From Clostridium sp. CAG:1000 (lineage in GTDB: Bacteria > Bacillota_I > Bacilli_A > RF39 > UBA660), in assembly GCA_000436975.1 (NCBI GenBank), contig HG000336.1:26519-90518 (forward strand): a stretch of DNA of 64,000 bases. Reading direction: 5' to 3'. Within the stretch, counting starts at the first letter, position 1; each line of letters opens with the position of its first letter. Below are positions 18,302 through 32,261 of the stretch, piece by piece. The position numbers were made by a program, and so were the translations under genes. The notes under the pieces were generated by a model. It was not told the DNA's origin. It worked only from the letters and a program-made list of their open reading frames with translations, and did not search any database.

Positions 18302-19699
18302 ATGATTGAATATCTTTTTTTTATTTGTTATAATTTTAACGTAGGTAGTAATATGAAAAAAATAAAAATGGGTTTAATTTTTTTTATTATGATATTAGAT
18401 TTACTTTTATTAATTAGAGTAACTTATTTTAGGTTTTATGAAGTAAGTAGACCTATTGATATAAAGCCTTATATTAAAGATGATAAAATACATATAACAT
18501 TTTATACTAATGAATATCAATTAAACAACAAAACCTATTGTATTATAAAAAAAGATAATGAAGTACCTTCTATAAATGATAAAAATTGGAAGTTATCTAA
18601 TAATAGTAGTTGTGTATATAAAATTGGAAAAGGAACTTATAAAGCATATGTAAAAACTGCTGATAACAAGATAATTTTTGTTGAGGGCTCTGACATGCTT
18701 GGAAGTGTTACTGATATTAATACTAATAAAGAAAAAATATATTTGGCAATAAATGAACAATACTCACCTACTATTAATATTGATTATATAGGAAATGCTA
18801 AAACAGATATTACGTGGACAAGTGAAAATAATAATATTGCTACTGTTTCTCATGATGGTAAAATTAAAGGTATTTCTGAAGGAGAAACAAAAATTACTGC
18901 TACATCAATGGACAAGAGTATACCTATTAAGGTTATTGTAACAGACTTAATAAATACTAGACCAAATCATTTTAGCAATAAAAAACCTTACCTACCCTGT
19001 GGTATATATTCTAAAGAAGACAATGATTTATTAGATACAATATTAGAAGATAGAATTAACACAGTAGGTTATCAAACAAGAGCTGGAGCTGTAGAAGCAG
19101 CACGATTTATTACATTAGAACTCCCATATAAAATTAGATATTTTTCTGAAAATGGAAGAGGCTCTACTAATGGAGTTCAAGGCGAAGGAAGATATTATAA
19201 TAAAGGATTATACTTACATAGTAGTAGATTTAAAAATATCAAAAAGAAAGCACATGGTCCTAAAACATGGGGATGTAGTTTATATAGTAACCCATCACAT
19301 GGGAAAAGAGCAAATGGACTTGACTGTAGTGGCTTTATATCATGGGTATTATTAAATGGAGGATTCGATGTTGGAGACATAGGAGCTGGTCTTGCACCTC
19401 ATTTAGATTTAACTGATTATGAGCAAAGAATTAAATTTAATTCAAATGTTATAAAATCGGGAAAAGTTAAAGTTGGTGATTTATTAAGTTCCGGAGGAGT
19501 TAATGGTGGACATATAGCAATGATAGTTGGCGAAGATAATAATAAATATTATGTAGCCGAAAGTTTATGGACTCCACCCAATGTAAGTGTTGGAATATAT
19601 GAATATTCTAAGAAAACTATCTTTAATAGATATTACTATGTAATGCTTATGGATAGTTATTATAAAGAAGATGGAAAATTAACAAAATTATGGTATTAG
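18302..19699 (+). CDS. membrane-anchored Big_2 domain + NlpC/P60 (C40) putative peptidoglycan hydrolase
   Basis: Big_2 signature NATVSHDGKIKGISEGETKITATS. C40 catalytic residues DCSGFISWV (Cys) and GGHIAMIVG (His). Probable true start is the MKKIKMG at 18353. Confidence 0.65.
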   Translation: MIEYLFFICYNFNVGSNMKKIKMGLIFFIMILDLLLLIRVTYFRFYEVSRPIDIKPYIKDDKIHITFYTNEYQLNNKTYCIIKKDNEVPSINDKNWKLSNNSSCVYKIGKGTYKAYVKTADNKIIFVEGSDMLGSVTDINTNKEKIYLAINEQYSPTINIDYIGNAKTDITWTSENNNIATVSHDGKIKGISEGETKITATSMDKSIPIKVIVTDLINTRPNHFSNKKPYLPCGIYSKEDNDLLDTILEDRINTVGYQTRAGAVEAARFITLELPYKIRYFSENGRGSTNGVQGEGRYYNKGLYLHSSRFKNIKKKAHGPKTWGCSLYSNPSHGKRANGLDCSGFISWVLLNGGFDVGDIGAGLAPHLDLTDYEQRIKFNSNVIKSGKVKVGDLLSSGGVNGGHIAMIVGEDNNKYYVAESLWTPPNVSVGIYEYSKKTIFNRYYYVMLMDSYYKEDGKLTKLWY

Positions 19700-19711
19700 G
19701 AAGTGTGAATC

Positions 19712-20140
19712 ATGGATTATATTGAAGAATTTATTGAAGATAATATTAAAATAATAGTTATAACTTTTATAGTTTTATTTGTTGTATTAGCATTATATTT
19801 TATATTTAGAGAGAAAAAAACATATGAAATTGTAACTTGTCAAAGTGATGGGGGGTATTTTGAAAGAAGTTTTACAAATAAAAATACAAATGATTCGTGT
19901 GATTTAACAATAAATGCAGGAAGTAAACCTACATCACAATACATGCTTAAAATTAAAAGAGTTAAGATTAGTAGAAATAATAATGTAACAATACTAGTAG
20001 AAAATGAAAAAATATCTGATGAAACAAAAGAAACGTTTACTAACCCCTATTGTAAAATTAAATTTAATTTTCCTTGTAATGATGTATATGTAAAAGATAA
20101 TCACAATAGAATATATTCTAAAATAGATAATGTAAACTAA
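19712..20140 (+). CDS. hypothetical signal-anchored protein (142 aa)
   Basis: N-terminal TM IIVITFIVLFVVLALYFIF. Cys-containing exported domain. Confidence 0.45.
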   Translation: MDYIEEFIEDNIKIIVITFIVLFVVLALYFIFREKKTYEIVTCQSDGGYFERSFTNKNTNDSCDLTINAGSKPTSQYMLKIKRVKISRNNNVTILVENEKISDETKETFTNPYCKIKFNFPCNDVYVKDNHNRIYSKIDNVN

Positions 20141-20157
20141 GATACTTTAAATGCTAA

Positions 20158-21519
20158 GTGTCTTTTTTTTACTTACTTGTTGTGATAAGATTAAATAAAG
20201 ATGGTGATTATATGGCTAAGAAAAGATATAAAAAAAGAAAATTAAGATATAAAATTAAAATACTTTCTAATTTCTTATTATTAATTTTGATATGTACGTC
20301 TGGTTATTATTTATATAACTTAATAATTAATAAGTCCCCTATTCTTTCTATAACAAATAAAAATAATAATCTAATAATTGAGCTTGATAATAATTATGAT
20401 TGTTTATTTACAGATGAATATATACTTCCAGATGTAGATAGTAATAAATGGGTAGCAAGTGATAAAGAATATAAATGTTATACTAAGTTTGATAATAGTA
20501 AATATATATTTTTAAAGAAAAATAATAAAATTGTTTATTCAACTGATGATGTTATATATTTAGAGACATTATCAAATAAAGTATATATGGCTCTTAATGA
20601 TAAAAAAGATTTACCTATAAAAGTAATTGGGAACATAAATAATTTAGATTTTAAATATAGTAATTCTACTGTTATTGATATTAATAAAGGTAAAATTATT
20701 AGTAATAGTATTGGTAATACATCTATTATAACCAAATATAATGGTACTAAAAATATAATAGATGTTATAGTAAGTGATTTAATAGTTAGTATGCCTCATG
20801 AATATGATTTAAAAAAGAAAGGGTTAGAATGTAATAAATACTCAGAAGAAGAAAGTGATATTTTAGACGATATATTAAAGTCAAGGGTTAATGAAGTTGG
20901 TGCCTCTACAAGAGCTTCTGCTGTTAGCGTAGCTAGATTTCTTACATTAGAGTTTCCTTATAGAATAAACTATTTTTATGAAAACGGTAGACAAACTACC
21001 AATAAAGTAGATGGTGAAGGAAGATACTATCATAAGGGACTTTATCTTACAGAAAGCAAATATAGTTCATTAACTGGAAGCACATCTTCGCCTAAAGCAT
21101 GGGGATGTAAACTCTATAGTAAACCTGTTAGTAGGTATGATAATAATGGTCTTGATTGTAGTGGCTTTGTATCTTGGGTATTATTAAATGCAGGATTTGA
21201 TCCTAAAGATGTAGGAACTGGATTTGCTGATTATTTAGATTTAACTGATTATGGAGATGTTAAAAGGATTAATAGTGCTACTATTAATGATATAAAGGTT
21301 GGAGATTTACTTCATAGTTATGCCGCAGGTGGACATATTGGCATCATAGTTGGTATTGATAATGACTACTTTTATGTAGCACAAGCACTATGGTATGATG
21401 AAGTTGGTGTAATAATAACTAAATATAAAAAAGACTTATTATATAAATCATTCCCACATGTAGTACTTATGGATAAATATTATATTAATGATGGTAAACT
21501 TACTAATATGTGGTATTAA
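20158..21519 (+). CDS. paralogous membrane-anchored Big_2 + NlpC/P60 (C40) putative peptidoglycan hydrolase
   Basis: Same architecture as 18302..19699: DCSGFVSWV and GGHIGIIVG. Probable start MAKKRYKK at 20209. Confidence 0.65.
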   Translation: MSFFYLLVVIRLNKDGDYMAKKRYKKRKLRYKIKILSNFLLLILICTSGYYLYNLIINKSPILSITNKNNNLIIELDNNYDCLFTDEYILPDVDSNKWVASDKEYKCYTKFDNSKYIFLKKNNKIVYSTDDVIYLETLSNKVYMALNDKKDLPIKVIGNINNLDFKYSNSTVIDINKGKIISNSIGNTSIITKYNGTKNIIDVIVSDLIVSMPHEYDLKKKGLECNKYSEEESDILDDILKSRVNEVGASTRASAVSVARFLTLEFPYRINYFYENGRQTTNKVDGEGRYYHKGLYLTESKYSSLTGSTSSPKAWGCKLYSKPVSRYDNNGLDCSGFVSWVLLNAGFDPKDVGTGFADYLDLTDYGDVKRINSATINDIKVGDLLHSYAAGGHIGIIVGIDNDYFYVAQALWYDEVGVIITKYKKDLLYKSFPHVVLMDKYYINDGKLTNMWY

Positions 21520-21615: not shown

Positions 21616-22926
21616 TTATTCTTCTATATTTGTATTATTTTCATCTGAATTAGCTTCATCAATATTAATAATATTACTATTAATATTTTCATCTATATTA
21701 TCATTAGTTTTTTTCTTTTTAAATATATTTTTAATGCCAGAAACCCAATTAAATTTTTCTAATATTGAATTAATATATTCATTTCTTTCATTGATTTTTT
21801 TCTTCTCTTCTTTTTCAAGTTGTTTTCTTCTTAAAACTAATTTATATAATATATTATTATTTAATAATACAAAACAACTTACTTCATTTGCAACTAATTC
21901 AGAATATAATATTGGTTGCAAAGTAGTATCATGAGCATCTAATAATTCATCAATACTATCAACTTTAATAACATTATAATCATCTTCATTAATTGTTGCT
22001 ATAGATTTCGATGAAACTATTGCCCTATCATATTCTTTAAGTATTTTACTAATAGTAGAATTATATACATCAATTTTAGATCTACCACTAAATAAAGTAT
22101 ATAGGCTTATATATAATAATGCTAAACTTAATATACCAACTATAAAACCTAATACTAATACAAAAGGTTTTTTAATTTGAGATATATAATTTTTGTCTAA
22201 AGTACCAGCGTTATTAATACTACTAGTATCAATACCTATATCAATAGTTTGCTCTGATAGCGGTATTGCTAAAGATAATTTATTAACTTTTTCAAAATCA
22301 TCTTTTAATATTTTGCTTTTAGCCTTAGTACTAATTTCCATAGTAACAACGAGTTTACTCTTTACTGATAATGCATATGTCTTCTTAAATGAATTTACAT
22401 ACGAATTATATTCATCATAATTAATATTAACTGAGTCATTAATTAAAAAGTTGTTAAATTCTCCTTTATTCTTTTTATCACTTCTAAGCACATTGGTTTT
22501 CTTATATAGTATTTTATTATTATCATTAGGATCCGTTATTAGTAAATCTGCTTTAATATTATATTTATAATCATAATTAAGATTATTATCTGATTTCATA
22601 TTAAATTTATAATTAATATTAATTTTATCAATTAAACTTGCTACATATTGCATATCTTTACCAAGATATTTATCATTATAAAATGAATTATCTTTCAAAT
22701 ATACTTTATAATCAATATCACCAGTTTCATTATAATTTACTACAGATTCCTTTTCACTATACATAGAACCCTTTAGTACAAACAATGTAAGAATAAGCAT
22801 AACCATTGTTGGTATCATCATACATATAAACCATTTTCTAATTGTAAATGGTTTCACTTCTTCAATACTATCATTTTCTGCATTATTTTCATTTTGAATA
22901 TTATTCATTTTATCACACCTTTTCAT
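21616..22926 (-). CDS. bitopic membrane protein, last gene of the SipW-type locus (possible TapA/DUF5305-like accessory protein)
   Basis: Two TM helices (~residues 35-55 and ~265-290). N/K-rich. The start overlaps the upstream gene by 14 nt. Confidence 0.45.
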   Translation of the reverse strand: MKRCDKMNNIQNENNAENDSIEEVKPFTIRKWFICMMIPTMVMLILTLFVLKGSMYSEKESVVNYNETGDIDYKVYLKDNSFYNDKYLGKDMQYVASLIDKININYKFNMKSDNNLNYDYKYNIKADLLITDPNDNNKILYKKTNVLRSDKKNKGEFNNFLINDSVNINYDEYNSYVNSFKKTYALSVKSKLVVTMEISTKAKSKILKDDFEKVNKLSLAIPLSEQTIDIGIDTSSINNAGTLDKNYISQIKKPFVLVLGFIVGILSLALLYISLYTLFSGRSKIDVYNSTISKILKEYDRAIVSSKSIATINEDDYNVIKVDSIDELLDAHDTTLQPILYSELVANEVSCFVLLNNNILYKLVLRRKQLEKEEKKKINERNEYINSILEKFNWVSGIKNIFKKKKTNDNIDENINSNIINIDEANSDENNTNIEE

Positions 22927-24106
22927 TTAACCATACTGTTGGAACTCCAAGATATGGTATTTTTAAAGTGGCTTTCCCAATAACTAAAGCCTCATTAATA
23001 GTCCAACTATCTTCTTCACTATTGTTATCACCTTTAGTATTAAAATATATAACCCCATTATATTCTTTAACCCTAACTATGCGGTGAACTATAACCATAT
23101 CATTATGTTTATATACAAGTACTTCTCCTTCTTTAAGTTTTCTAATTTCCTTTTCATTTAGTTTTTCAACAACAACTACATCACCTTTATTAATTCTTGG
23201 TTCCATAGATTCAGAACCAATTGCAAGAACATAAAATTTAAATATGCCACTAGTCAAAGATATCATTAGGAATATTATTATAACTAGTCCAATAGATAAT
23301 ATTTTTTCAGCTTTATTATTATTTCTTATATTTTCGTTAGTTTTTTTCTTTTTAAATTCTGTATAAAGCTTATACATAATAAGAGCTGGAAATAATAAAT
23401 TAATCACTGTTTGCATATATATATCAATATCAGGCACAATTGGCAATAAAAATGTAGGAATTTCCATAAATAATCTATATACTAATGGTGGCTTATATCC
23501 AAATTTAAGCGACATGTATGTTAAAAGTATATTCTTAGATAATAATGGAATCGTAGTAGCATATAACATTTTAATTATTCCGGAAGTTGTATGTAAATCA
23601 TATAAATAACTTACAAGTATACTATCTATTGATACAAATAATAAGCAAGTTAATATTATCAAAAATTTATTTTCTTTTCCTTTTTGAATTAATTCATATC
23701 TTAAAAATTCACTAGCAAATATAATTATCAATACAGGCGTAACATTTCTAATAATACCAATTAATTTCAAATTGTAACCACTTCTTAAAAAGCCAAGCCA
23801 TATACCACTAATATAAATTATTAAATAATATAGTATACAATATATTATTAAAGTCATTAACACATCTTTAGTAAATAATTGTCTACTTTTTTCATAGCCT
23901 AATAATCCAATTGATATAAGTAAGGCAGTAATAAGAAGTATAGATAGACCTAAATAGCCTATTTTATTTGTTACAAAAATATCTAAAAGAATAATCACTA
24001 AAGTAACTATTTCTATAATAGCAACTTTTTTTTCGCTAGATTTCATTACACCACCTCTTTTAAATATTTTTCTAATAAATATAATGATTAGGTATGTCTC
24101 ACTCAT
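22913..24106 (-). CDS. SipW-type (archaeal/ER-type) signal peptidase I fused to an N-terminal ~250 aa polytopic membrane domain
   Basis: C-terminal FYVLAIGSESMEPRINKGDVVVV...VHRIV matches the SipW/Sec11 fold. Upstream of it are ~7 hydrophobic helices. Confidence 0.65.
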   Translation of the reverse strand: MSETYLIIIFIRKIFKRGGVMKSSEKKVAIIEIVTLVIILLDIFVTNKIGYLGLSILLITALLISIGLLGYEKSRQLFTKDVLMTLIIYCILYYLIIYISGIWLGFLRSGYNLKLIGIIRNVTPVLIIIFASEFLRYELIQKGKENKFLIILTCLLFVSIDSILVSYLYDLHTTSGIIKMLYATTIPLLSKNILLTYMSLKFGYKPPLVYRLFMEIPTFLLPIVPDIDIYMQTVINLLFPALIMYKLYTEFKKKKTNENIRNNNKAEKILSIGLVIIIFLMISLTSGIFKFYVLAIGSESMEPRINKGDVVVVEKLNEKEIRKLKEGEVLVYKHNDMVIVHRIVRVKEYNGVIYFNTKGDNNSEEDSWTINEALVIGKATLKIPYLGVPTVWLNEKV

Positions 24107-24154
24107 TTCGCGAAATAAGGCATACCTAAATCATTTATTTTTAAATTACTTTAA

Positions 24155-24796
24155 TTAGTTAGCTTGACTAAATGTTAAAGTAGTTTCTGGAATACTAATA
24201 TTTACTTTACCAGCTGGAAGATCAGATGCATTATTGAAATCTTCATATTCAATAGTATATAAATAATCTTGAGTACCAGTTTTAGCGGTAATAGTATCAG
24301 TATTAAGTGTCACTGGGCTACCATCTGCTTTAGTAAAGCTAAATTTTAAATGTTTTTTAACATTAGCAGCATCAGTTTCAGCTTTTTCACCAGTTCCAGT
24401 AATTGTTAATGAATCTAATGTTGGAATACTACTTGCAGTTAATTTTGCTAAATAGTCTCCCGTATTAGATACAGTAATTTTATATTGTAATTTTTGTCCT
24501 GGAGCAGTAAAGTTTGCAGTAACTACACCAATTTTAGTATTAGTTGTGTTTTCACCAGTAGTTCCGTTTCCAATACTAGGAGTAGTTGCTTCTAAACCAG
24601 CACTACTAGCTTCAGTTTTTTCAACGCCTGTAAATAATACGCTCCATGTTTTACCACCAGTGTTAACACTAGCAGTACCATTAATTTGTAATGTTGTACT
24701 GAATGCGGCAAAACCTACACCAATTGCTACTACAGAAATTACTAAAGCAGCAATTACTAAAGTTTTCATTTCTCTTTCTCTATTCATGTTTACCAT
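24155..24796 (-). CDS. secreted protein with SipW-cognate-class signal peptide (TasA/camelysin-like candidate fibre subunit), paralog C
   Basis: N-terminus KTLVIAALVISVVAIGVGFAAFSTTLQINGTASV. Shares architecture with the other two paralogs. Confidence 0.5.
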   Translation of the reverse strand: MVNMNREREMKTLVIAALVISVVAIGVGFAAFSTTLQINGTASVNTGGKTWSVLFTGVEKTEASSAGLEATTPSIGNGTTGENTTNTKIGVVTANFTAPGQKLQYKITVSNTGDYLAKLTASSIPTLDSLTITGTGEKAETDAANVKKHLKFSFTKADGSPVTLNTDTITAKTGTQDYLYTIEYEDFNNASDLPAGKVNISIPETTLTFSQAN

Positions 24797-24810
24797 ATCT
24801 CCTTTTCCTA

Positions 24811-25395
24811 TTAATTTTGTCCATAGTATAATGTTATTGAAAGATTATCTACATCAACGGAATTAACCGGCCATGTATCACCTTCATACCACATACTAAT
24901 TTTTAGGGATTGAAGCGAGTTACTCTTCAAAACATCTCCAACTTTAATATCAGTTCCATCCTTATAAGCCAGTTTATACTTGAAATGACTACAGACAAGA
25001 TTTGCATCTTTTTGTGCCTCCTCGTCTTTTCCTGTACAAATTGGTTCAGTTTGAACTAGTGAAGTGACTACGGCATCAATACCGCTATTATTAACGACAT
25101 CTAATGTATATGATGCCGTATCATCCATACTATTAAATTCAACGCGAAATGAACCAATAATAGTTGATTTATCATCAATAGTTGGATCAATAAGTCCCTT
25201 AGCCGTTCCTTCATATGTAAAGTTAGATAAGTTAGCAAAATGTACATCCCATTTATGAGAAGTAATTGTTGCATAACCTTTGGTTTTCAGGGCTTTAAAT
25301 GACGTAGATAATGCCATTAAAGAAACACTAAGACCAAATACTGCAATAAGTAAGGCTACCACTGCAGCAACTAAATCCAAATTTTTCTTCTTCAT
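24811..25395 (-). CDS. secreted protein with SipW-cognate-class signal peptide, paralog B
   Basis: N-terminus LVAAVVALLIAVFGLSVSLMALSTSFKALKTKG. Conserved W.V.F.N, Cys pair and L.I.L.Y.Q blocks. Confidence 0.5.
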   Translation of the reverse strand: MKKKNLDLVAAVVALLIAVFGLSVSLMALSTSFKALKTKGYATITSHKWDVHFANLSNFTYEGTAKGLIDPTIDDKSTIIGSFRVEFNSMDDTASYTLDVVNNSGIDAVVTSLVQTEPICTGKDEEAQKDANLVCSHFKYKLAYKDGTDIKVGDVLKSNSLQSLKISMWYEGDTWPVNSVDVDNLSITLYYGQN

Positions 25396-25625
25396 TAGTT
25401 ACACAATTACCTCCTTTACATATGTATTGTGGAGTTATTTAAGTTGTAATGCATGTAAAACTAGGGTTTCACAATTCTTCAACTACCCTACATATTAATG
25501 ATAGCATAAACTATATAAATTGTAAATTATTTTATTAAATTTTTCACATAAAAATCCACACAAACTATAATTGTGTAGATTATTTTTAAATGTGTTTTTT
25601 CAATGCAAGAAGGCACTATACAACG

Positions 25626-26395
25626 CTAACCAATTCGGAAAGCTGGAGAAACGCTGTATGTACCACGAGCATAAATATTGCCCCAACCACCATTAGTGCT
25701 GACAGCGTAGAAAATACTATAATAGTAAGAATTGGCCGAGCGGAGCCACCAAAAATTAGCAGTTCCTGCACTATTCTTTTTTATTGCAGCTTCATAACTA
25801 CTTGTAGTCACACCTTTACTATTATAATAGTCTAATTGTCTTGTAAGATCTTTTGCTAAATCATACTGATAAGACCAGTCTGAATATATTTCTTTTGGTG
25901 CTAATAAATATAGTTTATCTGATGATGTAAAGTTATTTGTATCTTCTTTGCCATGGCCTGACACTGTTTCAGTAGTGATGATTACGCTCTTTAATTCCTG
26001 TGGTAATGAATTATAAATATCATTATCTATAAATGTTTTCATTTGACTTTTTGGCCATCCATCTTTATTCCAACCCGAATTATATGTTGTTCCTTTATAT
26101 TCTCCGCTTGGATTCATATTATGTGTAGTTATTATATCAGTAAACTCTACTACAAATCCACATGCGCTTTGTGAAAATCCTTCTTGATTACATTCGTCTG
26201 GTGTACTCATATTTGATATTCTTACTTTATGTTTTCCATATGTACCTAAGTCTACTTCTTTTTCATCTCCAACATTGTATTTACTTGTTTGACCTGTTCT
26301 TACGGCATTTGCTATTGTATTCCATTTCTGTTTTTCCTGCTTTGACAGCTTTAGCTATTGTATCCCATGAATCTTCTGCAAAGGAAACAGTATTT
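25626..26395 (-). pseudogene. DUF6273-like family gene (WWLRSA...SPAFRIG), frameshifted in its N-terminal region
   Basis: The N-terminal domain (DSWDTIAKAVKAGKTE / WNTIANAVRTGQTSKYNVGDEKEV) is in two frames across a tandem ~48 bp duplication. There is no start codon in the upstream frame. The track ORF is 25626..26210. Confidence 0.5.
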
Positions 26396-26400
26396 ATTGG

Positions 26401-27135
26401 TTAATCTGATACAACAGGTGTATTTGAACCAATAGTAGGTGTTTTAACCTGTGAATAAGTAAGACTAATCCCTAAACCAGATATTGATACATCATCTTGT
26501 GGTTCTTCTATAGTTGCTCCATCCACTGGACTTTTATATTTTAATGTAAGGATCATATCCTTAACATCTCCCGCATTTAATACATCATTCACTTCTGGAT
26601 AGCTAGAAAAATTTTGTGGAGAACCATTATCATCATAATGTTCTTCTTCGTTTGCATATTTTAAAGTATATTCTAAATTAGCACATACATTGTTAGCATC
26701 TATAGTAGCCTGTTCACCATTTCCATACCCTTCACAACTAATAGTATCTTTTACAATTTCAGATAATTTAGCATTTATAGTACCATTATTAGCTATTTGA
26801 AATGTATATGATATAGAATCTCCTGGTTCTAAAAAATTAACATTATATGACTTTAATTCAGTCTTATCTTCACTTATTACAGGATCCGTTATTTTAACCG
26901 CACTTCCAGTTAAAGAAGCTTCACTTAAATTTTGAAATTCTATTTTAAAAGACATTCCATCAACATTAGCAACTCCATTTATTTTAAGCGTAGTTGATAA
27001 GGCAGAATATCCTATACTAAGAGCTACACAAGATACTATCAATAATGTAATTAAAGAAATTTTACTATTGTCTTTATTCTTAATTCTAACTTTCATAATG
27101 GCTCCTATTCTTATATAAATATAACATAAAAACAA
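26401..27135 (-). CDS. secreted protein with SipW-cognate-class signal peptide, paralog A (first gene of the locus)
   Basis: Likely start MKVRIKNKD at 27093. N-terminus LITLLIVSCVALSIGYSALSTTLKINGVANV. Confidence 0.5.
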   Translation of the reverse strand: MFLCYIYIRIGAIMKVRIKNKDNSKISLITLLIVSCVALSIGYSALSTTLKINGVANVDGMSFKIEFQNLSEASLTGSAVKITDPVISEDKTELKSYNVNFLEPGDSISYTFQIANNGTINAKLSEIVKDTISCEGYGNGEQATIDANNVCANLEYTLKYANEEEHYDDNGSPQNFSSYPEVNDVLNAGDVKDMILTLKYKSPVDGATIEEPQDDVSISGLGISLTYSQVKTPTIGSNTPVVSD

Positions 27136-28113: not shown

Positions 28114-28965
28114 CTATTTTATCTCAAAAATAGCACTAGAATATATAATATTGCTATTTTTTGAATCACTTTCTTCATTAAACTCTTTAATTATCCTATA
28201 TTTACCAGGATCTAATAAATTAATATATTCATCACTTAAAACGCATGAAACTGTTTGATTACTTTTAATAATATTTAAAATTAAATTGAATGATGGTTCT
28301 TCCTTAAATTTAATTTTATACCATTTTTCATTAACATATTTTTCAATAAAATATTCCTCTCCATACTCATAATTATTATTTGTATTATTTTTAATAGTTA
28401 AATTCATATGATTATTAGTTTCATTAATATTCATGATAATTGTTTCATTAGATATATTATAATTAGATATATCGCCTAGTGTATATTTTCCTGACATATA
28501 TTTTAGTATGTCTTTATATTCTGCTTCATTTAATTTAAAAATTTTATTATATGGTTGTTCAATATAAAACTTATCTTTTTTAGAATAAATATATATTTTA
28601 TATTCTTCTTTATCATTTAATATAAAATTCATTAATGTATAATCATCAACCCCTACTGGTGTATCATAATTACTTTCTTTAGTAGATTTTTTATTTTTAA
28701 TTATATTATATATATTATTAATATCATTTTTTGATTCAATAGTAAGACTATTGTTTTTATCCTTTAAAATAATTTTTTCTATTTTATTCTCGTTAGGTAA
28801 ATTTATTGTTTTATTGCAAGTAAACCAATATCCAAATATACTAAGAATAATAGCTATCGTTACAAATACAATTATAATTAATACTTCTTTTACATTAATT
28901 TTCATAATAATGCCTCCTAAATAATAACACACATCCATATCATTATTTTTCTTATATAGTATCAC
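28114..28965 (-). CDS. hypothetical signal-anchored protein
   Basis: TM EVLIIIVFVTIAIILSIFGYWF. N/K-rich. Confidence 0.4.
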   Translation of the reverse strand: MILYKKNNDMDVCYYLGGIIMKINVKEVLIIIVFVTIAIILSIFGYWFTCNKTINLPNENKIEKIILKDKNNSLTIESKNDINNIYNIIKNKKSTKESNYDTPVGVDDYTLMNFILNDKEEYKIYIYSKKDKFYIEQPYNKIFKLNEAEYKDILKYMSGKYTLGDISNYNISNETIIMNINETNNHMNLTIKNNTNNNYEYGEEYFIEKYVNEKWYKIKFKEEPSFNLILNIIKSNQTVSCVLSDEYINLLDPGKYRIIKEFNEESDSKNSNIIYSSAIFEIK

Positions 28966-29031: not shown

Positions 29032-30201
29032 TTATAGCTTTTCTAACATACAAACGCATTCCACATGTTTTGTTCTTAGAAACATATCACAAATTGAAAT
29101 ATCTTTAAGAGCATAATTACTAAGTAAATCTATATCTCTTTTAAGTGTTTTATAATTACATGATATATATACTAATCTTTTTGAATTAGAGTTATTTATA
29201 TAATTAATTACTTCTTTAGATAGTCCATTTCTAGGCGGATCTACTATTATAGAATCAAACTTTCCTTTTATTCTTTTAGCATCACTACATATAAATTCAA
29301 TATTATTTATGTTATTTAATTTCTTATTTATATTAGCATTTTTTATACTTGATTCATTTATTTCAACTCCAACAACTTTTCTAAAAATATCACTCATCCA
29401 TATTCCAATAGTTCCTGTACCACAATATAAGTCAAGTAATGTATCACCACCCAAAATATACTCTTTTGCTTTATTATAAATAGAAGTCATACCTTCATTA
29501 TTTATCTGATAGAAACTCAATGGATAAATAGAAAACTTATATTTATTTATTTCATCAATCAAATATTCTTTTCCTTTAATATGTTTATCATTTAAATATA
29601 ATGAGTCAACATCAATATTTAATAATGGAGTATTTTCTATATCACTAATAATATTAACCATTACTTCATTATTAACGCTTCTAATCATTATTTCATAAAC
29701 ACCAGTTAAATCATATTCTTTTATATTATAAATTGTTTTATTTATTAATGAGTCTAACAAATAACATGTATTAAAAGAACATATATTATGAGTTTTAGAG
29801 TCATAAAAACCAATTTTATTATTCTTTATATGTAATACTACTTTATTTCTATAATTTAATGAATTATTAGTGTTTAAATAATTAACTTTTCTTTTAAATA
29901 ATCTTTCTATTTCATCTTTTTTTATTTTTCTTTCATTTTCATAACTTGTATGAAGAAAATTACATCCTCCACATTTATCATATATTGGGCATATTATTCT
30001 ATTTCTTTTAGGACTTTTGGTTATTATATTAACTATTTTTCCCTTAGCAAATCTTTTATTTAATTGTGTTATTTTAATCAAAACTTTTTCATTCTTAAGC
30101 GCACCAAAAATGAAGATAACAAAATTATCTATTCTAGCAATTCCATTACCTTCCATGTCTTCATTAATAATTGTTACTTCATATATATCATTAATTTTCA
30201 T
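29032..30201 (-). CDS. rlmD: 23S rRNA (uracil-C5)-methyltransferase RlmD/RumA family
   Basis: N-terminal TRAM domain, Fe-S cysteines CPIYDKCGGCNFLH, and SAM motif LLDLYCGTGTIG. Confidence 0.8.
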   Translation of the reverse strand: MKINDIYEVTIINEDMEGNGIARIDNFVIFIFGALKNEKVLIKITQLNKRFAKGKIVNIITKSPKRNRIICPIYDKCGGCNFLHTSYENERKIKKDEIERLFKRKVNYLNTNNSLNYRNKVVLHIKNNKIGFYDSKTHNICSFNTCYLLDSLINKTIYNIKEYDLTGVYEIMIRSVNNEVMVNIISDIENTPLLNIDVDSLYLNDKHIKGKEYLIDEINKYKFSIYPLSFYQINNEGMTSIYNKAKEYILGGDTLLDLYCGTGTIGIWMSDIFRKVVGVEINESSIKNANINKKLNNINNIEFICSDAKRIKGKFDSIIVDPPRNGLSKEVINYINNSNSKRLVYISCNYKTLKRDIDLLSNYALKDISICDMFLRTKHVECVCMLEKL

Positions 30202-31357
30202 TATTATTCATACTTTCAAATATAGAAGTCCCAAGTCCTAAAATATTTCTTATATCAAAATTATCTAATATAGTTGCGCCTATATCAGCAAATGTTTCTC
30301 TATCTTTTAGTCTCTTACCTTCTTTAAATTTCTTATTATATATTAAGATTGGTACATTTTCTCTTGTATGGTCTGTCCCTCTATATGTAGGATCATTACC
30401 ATGATCTGCTGTTATGATAAGCAAATCTTTTTCAGTTAGATTCTTTAAAAGAATTGGTAAATAATAATTAAACTCTTCCAATGCTTTTAAATATCCCTCT
30501 CTATTTCTTCTATGTCCATATAACATATCAAAGTCATTTAAATTAGCAAATATGAATCCTTTTTTATCACTTTTAGCAAAATCAATTAATTTCATCATGC
30601 CATCTATATTATCTTTAGTTCTTACTTTTATAGCAATACTTTTATTATTAAATATATCGGCTATTTTTCCAATCGCAATAGTTGGTACTCTATGTTTATC
30701 TAATAAATCAAGCACATTAAGTGGCGGATCTAAAGCATAATCATGCCTTCTTGAAGTTCTAGTAAAACTTCCTGGCTTACCAATATATGGTCTTGCAATT
30801 ATTCTTGCTATTTTATATTTTTCATCTTTAGTAAGTTCACGTACTTTAGTACATATATCATATAATTCTTCTACTGGTATTATATCTTCATGTGCTGCGA
30901 TTTGAAGCACTGAGTCTGCAGAAGTGTATATTATTAATGCACCTGTTTCCATCTGCATTTGTCCTAAATCTTCTATTATTTGAGTACCACTAGCAACTAT
31001 ATTACCAATAACATCCCTTCCTGTCACTTCTTTAATTTTACTTATTAATTCAAGAGGAAAACCATTTGGATATGTTTTATATGGTGTTTTTTGTACAACG
31101 CACATCATTTCATAATGACCATTTAATGTGTCCTTAGCAAGATTAATAGGTTTACCTTTCATATAATATCCTACTGTTTTAGAAACTTCTTTTCCAACTA
31201 AAGTAGTAAGCCCCATTCTTTCAAGAACATCTAAATTATAATGATCCCCAATTGTATGCAATAAAGTATTTGAACCAACGTCATTAAATTTATCAGCATC
31301 TTTTGCTTCTCCCACTCCTACACTATCCATTACTACTAAAAAAATTCTATCATACAT
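30191..31357 (-). CDS. deoB: phosphopentomutase
   Basis: MYDRIFLVVMDSVGVGEA metal-binding N-terminus. The start was chosen at internal Met36 of the track ORF so that it abuts the xer stop instead of overlapping it by 100 nt. Confidence 0.85.
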   Translation of the reverse strand: MYDRIFLVVMDSVGVGEAKDADKFNDVGSNTLLHTIGDHYNLDVLERMGLTTLVGKEVSKTVGYYMKGKPINLAKDTLNGHYEMMCVVQKTPYKTYPNGFPLELISKIKEVTGRDVIGNIVASGTQIIEDLGQMQMETGALIIYTSADSVLQIAAHEDIIPVEELYDICTKVRELTKDEKYKIARIIARPYIGKPGSFTRTSRRHDYALDPPLNVLDLLDKHRVPTIAIGKIADIFNNKSIAIKVRTKDNIDGMMKLIDFAKSDKKGFIFANLNDFDMLYGHRRNREGYLKALEEFNYYLPILLKNLTEKDLLIITADHGNDPTYRGTDHTRENVPILIYNKKFKEGKRLKDRETFADIGATILDNFDIRNILGLGTSIFESMNNNEN

Positions 31358-31358
31358 A

Positions 31359-32261
31359 TTAGTTACCTTCTTTCTTACTCCTATTAAAGTATTCATTATA
31401 ATTATCTTTGATAAAGTTATTTGCAAGATGAGTATATATTTCTGTTGTAACAACATTTTCATGTCCTAAAAGTTCTTGAACACTTCTAATATCCGCACCA
31501 CACTCAATCATATGAGTTGCAAAACTATGTCTAAGTACATGTGGAGTTATTTCCTTATTAATATTTTTTTCATGAGCAATCTTACCAATTATTTTATAAA
31601 GCCCTTGCCTAGTCATTTTAGTTCCATGATTATTTAAAAACAATGCATCTGTATTAGGCTTACCCTTTACAAATAAATCTTCTCTATAATTATTAATATA
31701 CATATCTAAATAATTAACAGCTATTTTGGACATAGGAACTATTCTTTCTTTACTACCTTTTCCATATACATGAACAACCATATTTAGTGTATCTACATTA
31801 TTTAGTTCTAAATTAATAAGTTCACTTGCTCTAAGTCCTGTTGAATACATAAGTTCTAATATAGCTTTATTTCTATGATCAAAAGGAGTATTAAGTTCAA
31901 TATCTAAAAGATTATCAACTTCTTCAATGGATAAATACTTAGGAAGCTTCTTTTTTCTTTGAAGACATTCTACATCCTCAGATATATTAATAAAACCTTT
32001 ATATACTGCTAGGTACTTATAAAAACTTTTTATACTTGCAATAATTCTATTAATAGAACTTTCATTATAACTAGGGAGTAAATGTAATATATAATTATCT
32101 ATATCTTTTTTCGTTATATTTAATATTTCTTTATCAGTATATGTTAAAAAATATTTAAGGTCCCTCATATAAGATTCAACTGTATTTTCAGAATAATTCT
32201 TATCTATTCTTAAATAATCACTAAAATCATCAACAAACTCTTTATTTTCAATATCTATCAT
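31359..32261 (-). CDS. tyrosine recombinase XerC/XerD family
   Basis: C-terminal catalytic box HVLRHSFATHMIECGADIRSVQELLGHENVVTTEIYTH. Confidence 0.8.
   Translation of the reverse strand: MIDIENKEFVDDFSDYLRIDKNYSENTVESYMRDLKYFLTYTDKEILNITKKDIDNYILHLLPSYNESSINRIIASIKSFYKYLAVYKGFINISEDVECLQRKKKLPKYLSIEEVDNLLDIELNTPFDHRNKAILELMYSTGLRASELINLELNNVDTLNMVVHVYGKGSKERIVPMSKIAVNYLDMYINNYREDLFVKGKPNTDALFLNNHGTKMTRQGLYKIIGKIAHEKNINKEITPHVLRHSFATHMIECGADIRSVQELLGHENVVTTEIYTHLANNFIKDNYNEYFNRSKKEGN

Follow-up and report, generated by a model that had tools for sequence, protein, structure and literature searches.

The window analysed here comprises 64,000 nucleotides of Clostridium sp. CAG:1000, an uncultured gut bacterium with a low-GC genome. 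Six co-directional open reading frames (ORFs) that a sequence-only reading had placed on its minus strand at positions 21616–27135 are all present, and the housekeeping genes described on either side are two NlpC/P60-like genes (weak matches of 19.9–21.3 bits, below the cutoff) and a Na_Ca_ex antiporter gene (233.6 bits). In the direction of transcription, the locus encodes a pilin-like subunit domain (gene A, 26401–27096, 231 amino acids), which is the 5′ part left of an adhesin-bearing subunit gene; a remnant of the same parent gene, consisting of a linker and one DUF6273 repeat (25626–26400); two pilin-like paralogues, gene C (24811–25395, 194 amino acids, assigned by paralogy and alignment) and gene D (24155–24787, 210 amino acids), the latter directly upstream of the peptidase gene; a fused peptidase (gene E, 377 amino acids); and a DUF5305 protein (gene F, 21616–22908, 430 amino acids; PF17231).

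Orthologue lengths and ribosome-binding sites set the starts of genes A, D, E and F at 27096, 24787, 24046 and 22908, respectively, which shortens the products of A and D from the 244 and 213 amino acids initially given. The 14-nt overlap reported between the peptidase and membrane-protein genes depends on an upstream ATG; taking the ATG at 22908, preceded by AAGGTG, as the start separates gene F from the peptidase stop codon by 4 nt. In the interval that divides the broken first gene from gene C, a pattern scan alone places a terminator-like hairpin (25581–25553) followed by a promoter-like site (25526–25498) on the minus strand (together 25498–25581); promoter-like sites are not enriched over shuffled sequences, so the evidence for two transcription units is weak.

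The gene set is conserved among uncultured gut Bacilli, at 80 loci in about 80 species-level genomes. A subunit gene lies upstream of the peptidase in 74 of 78 testable loci, and a DUF5305 gene immediately downstream in 77 of 79. None of genes C, D, E and F is truncated, their sizes match those of their orthologues, and at least 24 contigs, drawn from different samples, encode an identical E protein.

An adhesin-bearing first gene and its truncation

The ORF previously read as a degraded DUF6273 gene nested within the operon is the broken-off 3′ portion of that operon's first gene. Gene A is 72% identical to residues 1–236 of a 1,696-amino-acid protein in a relative (locus L001), and gene A and the DUF6273 ORF together are collinear with residues 1–479 of that protein; the remnant matches residues 238–479 in another frame (tblastn). 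The remnant ORF (25626–26210) lacks a signal peptide and scores 62.5 bits for DUF6273 (cutoff 23.5). Two lesions interrupt the frame: a TAA at 26401–26403, where relatives encode Glu (DEPINTVSF), and an out-of-frame junction near 26325. By blastn against locus L090, the window has one repeat fewer, with the junction at 26325.

Gene A also has 98% identical orthologues of 231 amino acids, and another species has acquired an independent stop within the same linker. In conspecific strains the first gene is intact, encoding 725–735 amino acids with a subunit domain and DUF6273 repeats. More widely, a large protein with a subunit-type N-terminal domain occurs at 41 of 82 loci, where its C-terminal part carries DUF6273, DUF285, Flg_new or ALK_LTK_GRD domains. 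Even when truncated, gene A retains an entire subunit domain and its signal peptide. The suggestion that the system is possibly decaying holds for the first gene, in some strains only, and not for the locus as a whole.

Secreted subunits and their predicted processing enzymes

The three secreted proteins A, C and D are true paralogues, as had been proposed (BLASTP: A–C, E = 6e-25; A–D, 3e-19; C–D, 1e-6), and the motifs quoted for them are found in their alignment; the Cys pair ascribed to all three mature domains occurs in A and C and is missing from D. They belong to a family of 7,374 clusters at 50% identity, for which no Pfam or NCBIfam model matched. Mature subunits are acidic, with a predicted pI of 4.2–5.0 across 184 family ORFs. 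The AlphaFold2 model of D (pLDDT 88.4) has a transmembrane (TM) helix at residues 2–28, a free extended segment at 29–48 and a ten-strand β-sandwich; a Foldseek search of the PDB with the subunit returned nothing at E ≤ 1e-3, and a profile search of PDB sequences with the family found no filament subunit. Weak Pfam and NCBIfam matches of subunits to the DUF11 repeat, HYDIN/ASH Ig-like and DUF7507 models were also seen. Orthologues of D that are 74–94% identical are numerous in metagenomes, and C has a 194-amino-acid orthologue at the equivalent position in L001, L007, L008 and conspecific contigs.

Export signals of the subunits are Sec-type, with a K/R n-region and no twin arginine. Computed over 175 of the 184 family proteins, the N-terminal motif consists of G (88%), F/Y (96%), A/S (98%), A (74%) and F/L/Y (86%), after which alternating positions are occupied by L (87%), I (80%), A (72%) and V (66%). 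The predicted site is G-[F/Y]-[A/S]↓A-[F/L/Y]-[S/T], positioned by the −3/−1 rule alone; it is succeeded by an amphipathic strand that is likewise conserved. Of the 17 columns that vary least across the family, 8 fall in residues 24–40 of D. The N terminus of D is canonical (G-F-A↓A-F-S-T-T-L-Q-I-N-G-T-A-S-V). Gene C has the divergent site S-L-M-A-L-S instead of G-F-A-A-F-S, with M/F at the predicted −1 position, and its product may escape cleavage there.

The TasA site TWA↓AF, with aromatic residues at P2 and P2′, resists LepB, and the enzyme that cuts it is the endoplasmic reticulum (ER)-type SipW (PMC10269814). A housekeeping LepB-type enzyme would probably process the subunit site poorly, because its P2 and P2′ positions are likewise aromatic. 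The likeness to SipW-cognate signal peptides that had been noted stands for this pattern, but does not extend to the TIGR04088 model. Nor did the recommended searches connect the paralogues with TasA, camelysin or BsaA: the subunits passed none of Peptidase_M73, NF046066, TIGR04090 and TIGR04088, and hhalign of the family against TasA gave a probability of 4.9%, with only a PGD..N.G motif aligned.

Gene E, described at the outset as a fused SipW/Sec11-type peptidase, is indeed a single 377-amino-acid polypeptide that joins a polytopic membrane domain to a Sec11/SipW-type domain, with about 9–10 helices in total. Its C-terminal part (residues 244–377; 22913–23317) consists of a TM helix and a signal peptidase I domain and matches TIGR02228, the ER/archaeal type, at 91.3 bits (cutoff 51.85), but falls short of the Bacillus SipW equivalog NF046067 (67.8 against a cutoff of 190). 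It aligns with human SEC11A/C (E = 4e-11 to 3e-12) through SGSMEP, IVHR and TKGDNN..D. The catalytic residues S280, H321 and D346, which correspond in the alignment to S56, H96 and D122 of SEC11A, are intact and invariant in 29 homologues.

The N-terminal domain of E (residues 1–243; 23318–24046) has around eight TM helices. E113 and R116 are invariant, no His is, and sequence-level similarity to CPBP proteins was absent; structural modelling predicts a CPBP, or type II CAAX-protease (Rce1, SpdC), fold that lacks the catalytic histidines. SpbR, which is a degenerate CAAX-like protein, binds and regulates a signal peptidase (PMC12260438). Gene F does encode a membrane protein, although one with two TM segments rather than the bitopic protein first described: it is a DUF5305 protein (PF17231, 59.9 bits; cutoff 29) with an extracellular domain between the TM segments and a cytoplasmic C-terminal domain. 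The DUF5305 protein TafG is a proposed signal-peptidase accessory subunit (PMC11821415; bioRxiv 10.64898/2026.01.04.697558), and F is its counterpart.

A proposed surface-fibre module and its alternatives

On balance we favour, with modest confidence, a self-contained module that makes a cell-surface fibre or matrix; the paralogy, catalytic residues, synteny, cleavage-site pattern and strain polymorphism are observed, and fibre assembly we infer. A, C and D would be acidic β-sandwich subunits exported by Sec through a family-specific signal peptide, which E would cut, the likeliest position being the junction of G-[F/Y]-A with A-[F/L/Y]-S. The predicted CPBP-fold domain of E is probably a non-proteolytic scaffold or regulator, and F may act with E as an accessory subunit. 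Cleavage would free the conserved amphipathic N-terminal strand A-F-S-x-x-L-x-I-x-x-x-A-x-V, which may then enter the sandwich of a neighbouring subunit; such donor-strand complementation is the mode of assembly in TasA, Tafi, AbpA and AbpX filaments. The large subunit of relatives and some conspecific strains would join the fibre by the common N-terminal domain and display its adhesin-like repeats, which are variable and are DUF6273 in the species of the window; in the window strain, this gene is cut down to a bare subunit domain.

A less probable reading, although one to be taken seriously, is that the locus serves solely to export and process surface proteins that do not polymerise: A, C, D and their large relatives would be monomers, either secreted or wall-associated, acting as adhesins or matrix proteins, with a specialised signal peptide in common for which a peptidase of their own is required. 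Their conserved N-terminal stretch would then be a stalk, or a recognition or sorting element for a complex of the peptidase, CPBP-like domain and DUF5305 protein, and not a donor strand. The evidence linking peptidase to substrate fits this equally well, the fold resembles those of filament subunits weakly, and the faint family matches noted above are to generic Ig-like surface domains. However, peptidase recognition normally takes just P3–P2′, whereas conservation here reaches P15′, with hydrophobic residues spaced i, i+2 in the manner characteristic of edge strands; several small paralogues and one adhesin-bearing protein per operon make up the parts list of a fibre and not that of a single adhesin; and all characterised systems of a dedicated Sec11-type peptidase with DUF5305 form donor-strand filaments.

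It is improbable that the signal anchor stays uncleaved, with the paralogues serving as type II membrane proteins on a thin-walled, reduced-genome bacterium and a subset being released by the peptidase, perhaps under the control of its CPBP-like domain. The long N-terminal helix is continuous with protein D in the model, the −1 residue of C is non-canonical, and SpbR inhibits rather than promotes SpsB cleavage (PMC12260438), all of which fit an anchor. Nearly all family members, however, have a canonical site with G at −3 and A/S at −1, the invariance of the catalytic residues of E argues for constitutive function, and deletion of the Tafi peptidase gene tafD leaves TafA unprocessed and abolishes the fibre (PMC11821415).

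That the whole locus is a non-functional remnant is very improbable: the two lesions in the first gene and the independent stop in another species are set against four full-length, orthologue-sized genes, a peptidase identical across contigs with its active site intact, and a first gene that is whole in conspecific strains and keeps its subunit domain and signal peptide when truncated. Least probable is a sortase-dependent or type IV pilus, a reading prompted by SipA, a signal-peptidase homologue needed for sortase pilus polymerisation, to which the peptidase domain gave its best structural match. The sequence evidence already contradicts it: LPXTG-type signals occur in 0 of 184 family ORFs; a sortase, a prepilin peptidase and an assembly ATPase are all missing from the conserved gene set; the conserved motif comes after the hydrophobic segment, in the reverse of the order seen in class III (G↓F..E) prepilin signals; and E retains Ser/His/Asp and scores as Sec11/archaeal type.

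Comparison with known filament systems

The tapA-sipW-tasA operon of Bacillus subtilis and sipW-bsaA of Clostridium perfringens share with the locus a cleavage site with aromatic P2/P2′ and small P1/P1′ residues (TWA↓AF against GFA↓AF) and a subunit-like accessory or adhesin protein with a common N-terminal element. Unlike the window locus, these operons have no DUF5305 gene, and SipW has no CPBP-like fusion. Closer parallels than the tapA-sipW-tasA operon first invoked are the archaeal Tafi and the AbpX-type loci, which likewise combine the peptidase and a DUF5305 protein with minor subunits and with a protein at the tip (PMC11821415; PMC12337348; bioRxiv 10.64898/2026.01.04.697558).

Tafi, the Tat-fimbriae or bundling pili of Haloarcula hispanica and Natrinema sp. 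J7-2 (subunits TafA/C/E, signal peptidase TafD, DUF5305 protein TafG and adhesin-like TafF), resembles the locus in its small paralogous subunits, dedicated polytopic S26-type peptidase, adjoining DUF5305 gene and large variable protein. Tafi is archaeal and exported by Tat, whereas the window locus is bacterial with Sec-type signals; the extra domain of TafD is C-terminal, whereas the CPBP-fold domain of E precedes the peptidase. Window subunits showed no sequence similarity to solved filament subunits.

AbpX loci of archaea and of Bacillota/Chloroflexota (bioRxiv 10.64898/2026.01.04.697558), compared here by their description, encode a dedicated signal peptidase I with ten TM helices, close to the count for E; a DUF5305 protein serves as its accessory, and minor subunits resembling AbpX are encoded along with tip proteins. 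AbpX subunits have a pI of about 4, near the predicted mature range of the window family. Donor-strand position 2 is aromatic in AbpX and F/L/Y in the window family, whereas position 4 is a calcium-binding acidic residue in AbpX and T/S/Q/N in the window family. Anchors of the SLH or LPXTG kind and c-di-GMP regulators are frequent in bacterial AbpX loci but were not seen in window-type loci.

In the SpbR–SpsB and SpdC–SagB pairs of Staphylococcus aureus, the CAAX-like protein and its partner are separate, whereas E is one polypeptide; SpsB is of the P-type, whereas the peptidase of E is of the ER/archaeal (Ser-His) type. The system is not undescribed as a class, since Tafi and AbpX-type loci already represent it; the subunit family and the fusion of a CPBP-like domain to the peptidase are the undescribed elements that the window adds to it.

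Gene content, relatives and a truncated adhesin gene

Every long open reading frame (ORF) at 21616–27135 lies on the minus strand. With gene limits set from ortholog lengths and ribosome-binding sites, the operon comprises, all on that strand, A (26401–27096; 231 amino acids), a DUF6273 remnant (25626–26400), C (24811–25395; 194 amino acids), D (24155–24787; 210 amino acids), E (22913–24046; 377 amino acids) and F (21616–22908; 430 amino acids). A 14-nt overlap had been described between E and F, which needs an upstream ATG for F; the ATG at 22908, which has an AAGGTG ribosome-binding site and is also the start picked by gene callers on conspecific contigs, leaves a 4-nt gap. In this very AT-rich stretch, GC content is 31–34% in the three subunit genes, A, C and D (window positions 24000–26500), as against 21–25% in the flanks and the E and F genes; the rise could come from the T/S/G/A-rich amino-acid composition of the subunits or from a different history.

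As previously noted, the operon is flanked by an NlpC/P60-like gene pair on one side (19.9–21.3 bits, below cutoff) and by an Na_Ca_ex antiporter gene on the other (233.6 bits). The pair consists of two paralogs of about 450 amino acids (18302–21519) on either side of a 142-amino-acid PrcB_C-domain protein, and the first paralog also has a Big_2 domain; the trio adjoins the operon in conspecific contigs and not in L001, a syntenic locus. Upstream of the antiporter gene, a membrane-anchored DUF5301 and Big_14 protein is encoded at 28114–28965; this gene has the same place in three conspecific contigs (L088, L090 and L091), and other genes stand there in two (L086 and L087). Farther out, ORFs at 30191–31462 and 31359–32261 overlap by about 100 nt as listed, probably through a wrongly placed start codon in the mechanical ORF calls; their counterparts in L001, a Metalloenzyme gene and a XerC-like integrase gene, abut without overlap.

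A scan of one genome per species found relatives of E in 107 genomes, and ORFs were called and iterative HMMs built for the 80 loci kept. Nearly all of the 107 genomes are uncultured gut metagenome-assembled genomes (MAGs) labelled Bacilli, Tenericutes, Mycoplasmatota, Erysipelotrichaceae or Clostridium sp. A DUF5305 gene directly follows the peptidase gene in 77 of 79 testable cases, and a subunit-family gene directly precedes it in 74 of 78. Small subunits number one to six per locus; 41 of 82 loci also encode a protein of 330–1330 amino acids that begins with the subunit-type signal peptide and N-terminal domain, and the C-terminal parts of these large proteins are variable, with DUF6273, DUF285 or Listeria-Bacteroides repeats, or an ALK/LTK glycine-rich domain. 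Some genomes (L049, L057 and L064) have two complete modules of subunit, peptidase, DUF5305 and large-protein genes next to each other within about 10 kb. Across 16 loci, L057 and L064 among them, several MAGs bear the names Bacteroides helcogenes, Muribaculaceae, Paludibacteraceae, Acidaminococcus or Saccharibacteria; the operon probably does not occur in those phyla, and wrong bin labels or contigs from contamination are the likely cause.

The sequence-only reading placed a degraded DUF6273 gene nested inside the operon; it is instead the 3′ part of a broken first gene. The ORF at 25626–26210 matches PF19789 DUF6273 (62.5 bits, cutoff 23.5), the repeats of which are intact in relatives. At the same position, L001 encodes a 1696-amino-acid protein composed of an A-type domain (residues 1–236) and about six DUF6273 repeats. 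The A and DUF6273 ORFs are collinear with residues 1–479 of this protein (tblastn; 72% and 52% identity), and the collinearity is broken by an in-frame TAA and a frame change.

Contigs that encode an identical peptidase protein were taken as conspecific strains. The first gene is intact in L088 and L090 (725 or 735 amino acids) and split into 479 and 200 amino acids in L089; in L086, L087 and L091, it encodes 231 amino acids followed by uncalled sequence, the same as in the window. The window has one repeat fewer than L090, and an out-of-frame junction lies near 26325; the stop codon of the window falls at a Glu of relatives, within DEPINTVSF. An independent in-frame stop occurs in another species (L004:1355–2788, GCA_963592735.1) in the same linker before the first DUF6273 repeat (..SFSTD*WATIAVNV..). 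An assembly artefact is ruled out by the presence of the 231-amino-acid form on independent contigs, and programmed read-through by the frameshift after the stop. The adhesin-bearing gene is variably truncated, and a complete signal-bearing subunit domain is left each time. This polymorphism resembles on/off switching or repeat-number variation of an adhesin between strains, and the recurrent truncation in the linker may be selected rather than accidental. The earlier suggestion of a possibly decaying system applies to the first gene, which is broken by a stop and a frame change; the remainder of the operon is intact.

A large family of signal-bearing subunits

The paralogy proposed for A, C and D is borne out by BLASTP (E = 6e-25 for A–C, 3e-19 for A–D and 1e-6 for C–D; 27–28% identity over most of their length), and the motifs quoted for them are seen in the alignment, except that the Cys pair is present in A and C and absent from D. 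A TasA-like nature had been proposed for them; membership of the TasA, camelysin and BsaA families found no support by sequence, and any relationship would be distant. All three proteins are under the cutoff for every Pfam model. At its PGDSISYTFQIANNG motif, A matches the NCBIfam DUF11-type repeat model TIGR01451 over 29 residues only (25.1 bits, cutoff 24) and gives the best TasA-related Pfam signal, PF12389 Peptidase_M73, below threshold (16.7 bits, cutoff 22.5); C and D match neither PF12389 nor any NCBIfam model. Among 75 family members searched against Pfam and NCBIfam, no family scored above its cutoff, and the TasA-related signals, all sub-threshold, were to PF12389 (7 of 75; best E = 8e-4), TIGR04090 (1 of 75; E = 0.004) and the TasA model NF046066 (1 of 75; E = 0.017). 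The SipW-cognate signal peptide model TIGR04088, to which the N termini had been likened, gave no match at E ≤ 1 for A, C and D or at E ≤ 10 for the 75 members. Aligning the family to TasA with hhalign gave a probability of 4.9%, and the aligned part was the PGD..N.G motif only. Searched against PDB sequences, the family profile had a single match, a spurious dynein protein (E = 0.11).

The AlphaFold2 model of D (pLDDT 88.4) has a transmembrane (TM) helix at residues 2–28, an extended and less confident segment at 29–48, and a ten-strand sandwich with one helix; Foldseek found no PDB match to it at E ≤ 1e-3. An exhaustive profile search with a threshold of E ≤ 1e-3 recovered representatives of 7,374 clusters at 50% identity, a lower bound on the size of the family; 3,536 of them reached E ≤ 1e-10. 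None of the listed homologs has a Pfam domain, and the sole source-named entry is ‘hypothetical protein’. Naming the family would annotate thousands of such proteins.

An N-terminal pattern could be aligned in 175 of 184 family proteins. A K/R-rich start and a hydrophobic segment of about 17 residues are followed by G (88%), F/Y (96%), A/S (98%), A (74%), F/L/Y (86%) and S/T (78%), and then by x, x, L (87%), x, I (80%), x, x, x, A (72%), x and V (66%). The –3/–1 rule predicts cleavage after the A/S, that is, G-F-A|A-F-S, which makes both P2 and P2′ aromatic (for P2′, in about 70% of members). SipW cuts TasA at TWA|AF; Escherichia coli LepB processes TasA poorly, with the P2 Trp and P2′ Phe implicated (PMC10269814). 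The family pattern G-[F/Y]-A|A-[F/L/Y]-S mirrors that site, a specific and checkable likeness, and we suggest that a dedicated ER-type peptidase is kept because the site shares the LepB-refractory aromatic P2/P2′ pattern of TasA. Beyond the predicted site, alternating hydrophobic conservation runs for 15 residues; of the 17 columns that are most conserved across the family, 8 fall in this stretch.

The signal peptidase and its proposed partners

Gene E (22913–24046) encodes a membrane domain fused to a signal peptidase. The peptidase had been called SipW/Sec11-type, and the ER/archaeal type is confirmed for the C-terminal 110 residues of E by TIGR02228 (91.3 bits, cutoff 51.85), whose match lies at residues 271–396 of the 397-amino-acid ORF. 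The enzyme is SipW-like in type and is not a SipW ortholog (NF046067 equivalog, 67.8 bits against a cutoff of 190). It matches human SEC11A and SEC11C (E = 4e-11 to 3e-12), with SESMEP aligned to SGSMEP, IVHRI to IVHRV and TKGDNNSEED to TKGDNNAVDD. S280, H321 and D346 stand opposite S56, H96 and D122, as counted on the SEC11A sequence, which indicates a Ser–His(–Asp) arrangement and not a Ser–Lys dyad. Loss of the catalytic Ser or His, named in the sequence-only reading as grounds against it, was not found: S280, H321, D346 and D340 do not vary among 29 homologs, the most distant at 32% identity. That E cleaves the neighbouring subunits is well supported, and we regard it as highly probable.

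About 190 database proteins have the full 375-amino-acid architecture of E. In the AlphaFold2 model (pLDDT 79.4), about eight TM helices and one linking TM helix precede the peptidase domain, and the membrane domain is predicted to have the eight-TM Rce1 fold. Its structure matches are Staphylococcus aureus SpdC/LyrA (6u0o_A; match values 14.5 and 215), Rce1 (4cad_C; 12.0 and 202), APH-1 (8oqz_C; 6.8 and 147) and TMEM147 (6w6l_4; 6.5 and 145). APH-1 was reportedly traced to the CPBP family by Pei et al. in 2011, and TMEM147 is in turn a relative of APH-1. Both SpdC and Rce1 belong to the CAAX-protease (CPBP) family (PMC12260438).

The catalytic CPBP motifs EExxxR, FxxxH and HxxxN/D are absent from the E membrane domain, and residues 1–260 contain no invariant His. 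Across the 29 homologs, E113 and R116 (E-x-x-R spacing) are invariant, F137 is conserved and N172 is near-invariant; in our own reading of the alignment, F-x-x-x-D may occupy the motif 2 position. PF02517 gave no match at E ≤ 10 among 29 members, and phmmer against the PDB and hhalign against an Rce1-like protein of L001 were both negative. Because no sequence method links the domain to CPBP, the assignment is drawn solely from the predicted fold. The residue pattern appears to resemble that of the non-proteolytic CPBP proteins SpdC, LnsB and SpbR. There is a precedent for such a partner: the degenerate CAAX-like protein SpbR binds SpsB, a signal peptidase, and determines which substrates SpsB cuts (PMC12260438). 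We found neither peptidase sequences nor a remark on CPBP in the supplement of the AbpX preprint (bioRxiv 10.64898/2026.01.04.697558).

Gene F (21616–22908) matches PF17231 DUF5305 over profile positions 1–215 of 217 (59.9 bits, cutoff 29). Hydrophobic segments read from the sequence at about 31–51 and 253–277 enclose an extracellular domain (about 200 residues) and are followed by a cytoplasmic tail, giving the two flanking TM segments of a DUF5305 protein. TafG of the archaeal Tafi fibres belongs to the same family and adjoins the dedicated peptidase TafD in Tafi loci. DUF5305 also occurs in AbpX loci; fusions of it to the peptidase are known, and a role as accessory subunit of the peptidase has been suggested (PMC11821415, bioRxiv 10.64898/2026.01.04.697558).

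Proposed assembly and relation to known systems

We propose that Sec exports the subunits and that an E–F complex would then cut the signal peptide at G-F-A|A-F-S. Once released by this cut, the amphipathic N-terminal strand could complement the sandwich of the next subunit to give a non-covalent fibre, which large family members would join through the same domain, bearing adhesin modules. Polymerisation, judged from the parts list and the strand conservation, has in our estimate roughly even chances. The chief alternative is a set of surface proteins that do not polymerise and have a signal peptidase of their own, an explanation that shares the processing step with the fibre model. The conserved N-terminal stretch appears to exceed what the peptidase needs and looks as an edge or donor strand would; in the D monomer model, this strand is a free segment. 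LPx[TSA]G is found in the last 45 residues of none of 184 family ORFs, and no sortase is present among the called genes of the locus. Because both are absent, anchoring of the proposed fibre must work differently; an uncleaved subunit could serve, and C, whose predicted –1 residue is M or F, is one candidate.

A more far-reaching proposal, which we consider rather unlikely, joins these elements. The subunits would form a very large class of their own, self-assembling surface-fibre proteins of reduced-genome gut Bacilli that are not diverged TasA relatives, and the CPBP-fold/Sec11 fusion and the DUF5305 protein would form a combined processing and assembly machine, in which the dead CAAX-like domain would hold the signal peptide or nascent donor strand and pass the cleaved subunit to the fibre. 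If true, fibre assembly would follow a new, chaperone-free pathway, and the two enzyme families that SpbR and SpsB pair in trans would for the first time be known as a functional fusion. The covalent CAAX-like/peptidase fusion is a handle on the roles of DUF5305 and degenerate CPBP proteins for signal peptidases.

Three other readings were rejected. A bacteriocin/immunity pair around the CPBP-like domain is ruled out by its neighbours, which are 200-amino-acid β-sandwich proteins with the family signal peptide. A type IV pilus is ruled out by the hydrophobic segment before G-F-A-A-F-S, the absence of Glu at +5 and the S26 type of the locus peptidase, and a sortase pilus by the missing LPXTG-type signals and sortase.

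The gene content had been likened to tapA-sipW-tasA. Tafi (2025; PMC11821415, PMC12337348) and AbpX (preprint, January 2026) are the better match: their gene set of a dedicated SPase I, an adjacent DUF5305 gene, two or more small subunits that are paralogs and a large tip or adhesin protein is found in the window and its syntenic loci taken together. Among PDB sequences, we found no homology of the subunits to TafA/TafE or AbpX. The combination of a ten-TM dedicated SPase I and DUF5305 has already been noted in bacteria and archaea (bioRxiv 10.64898/2026.01.04.697558). What is new is the subunit family (large, without annotation and beyond the reach of sequence searches from TasA), its host clade, the predicted CPBP fold of the membrane domain of the peptidase and the strain-variable adhesin subunit. 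The hosts are uncultured, small-genome, very low-GC Bacilli of human and animal guts, for which—to our knowledge—nothing is known of surface structures. If they make fibres with swappable adhesin modules (DUF6273, DUF285 and Listeria-Bacteroides repeats), these would be prime candidates for attachment to hosts or partners, and strain-level truncation of the adhesin would be an outward sign of selection acting on such attachment. The operon would extend the pattern of TasA, Tafi and AbpX, a dedicated ER-type peptidase with DUF5305, to a new bacterial clade.
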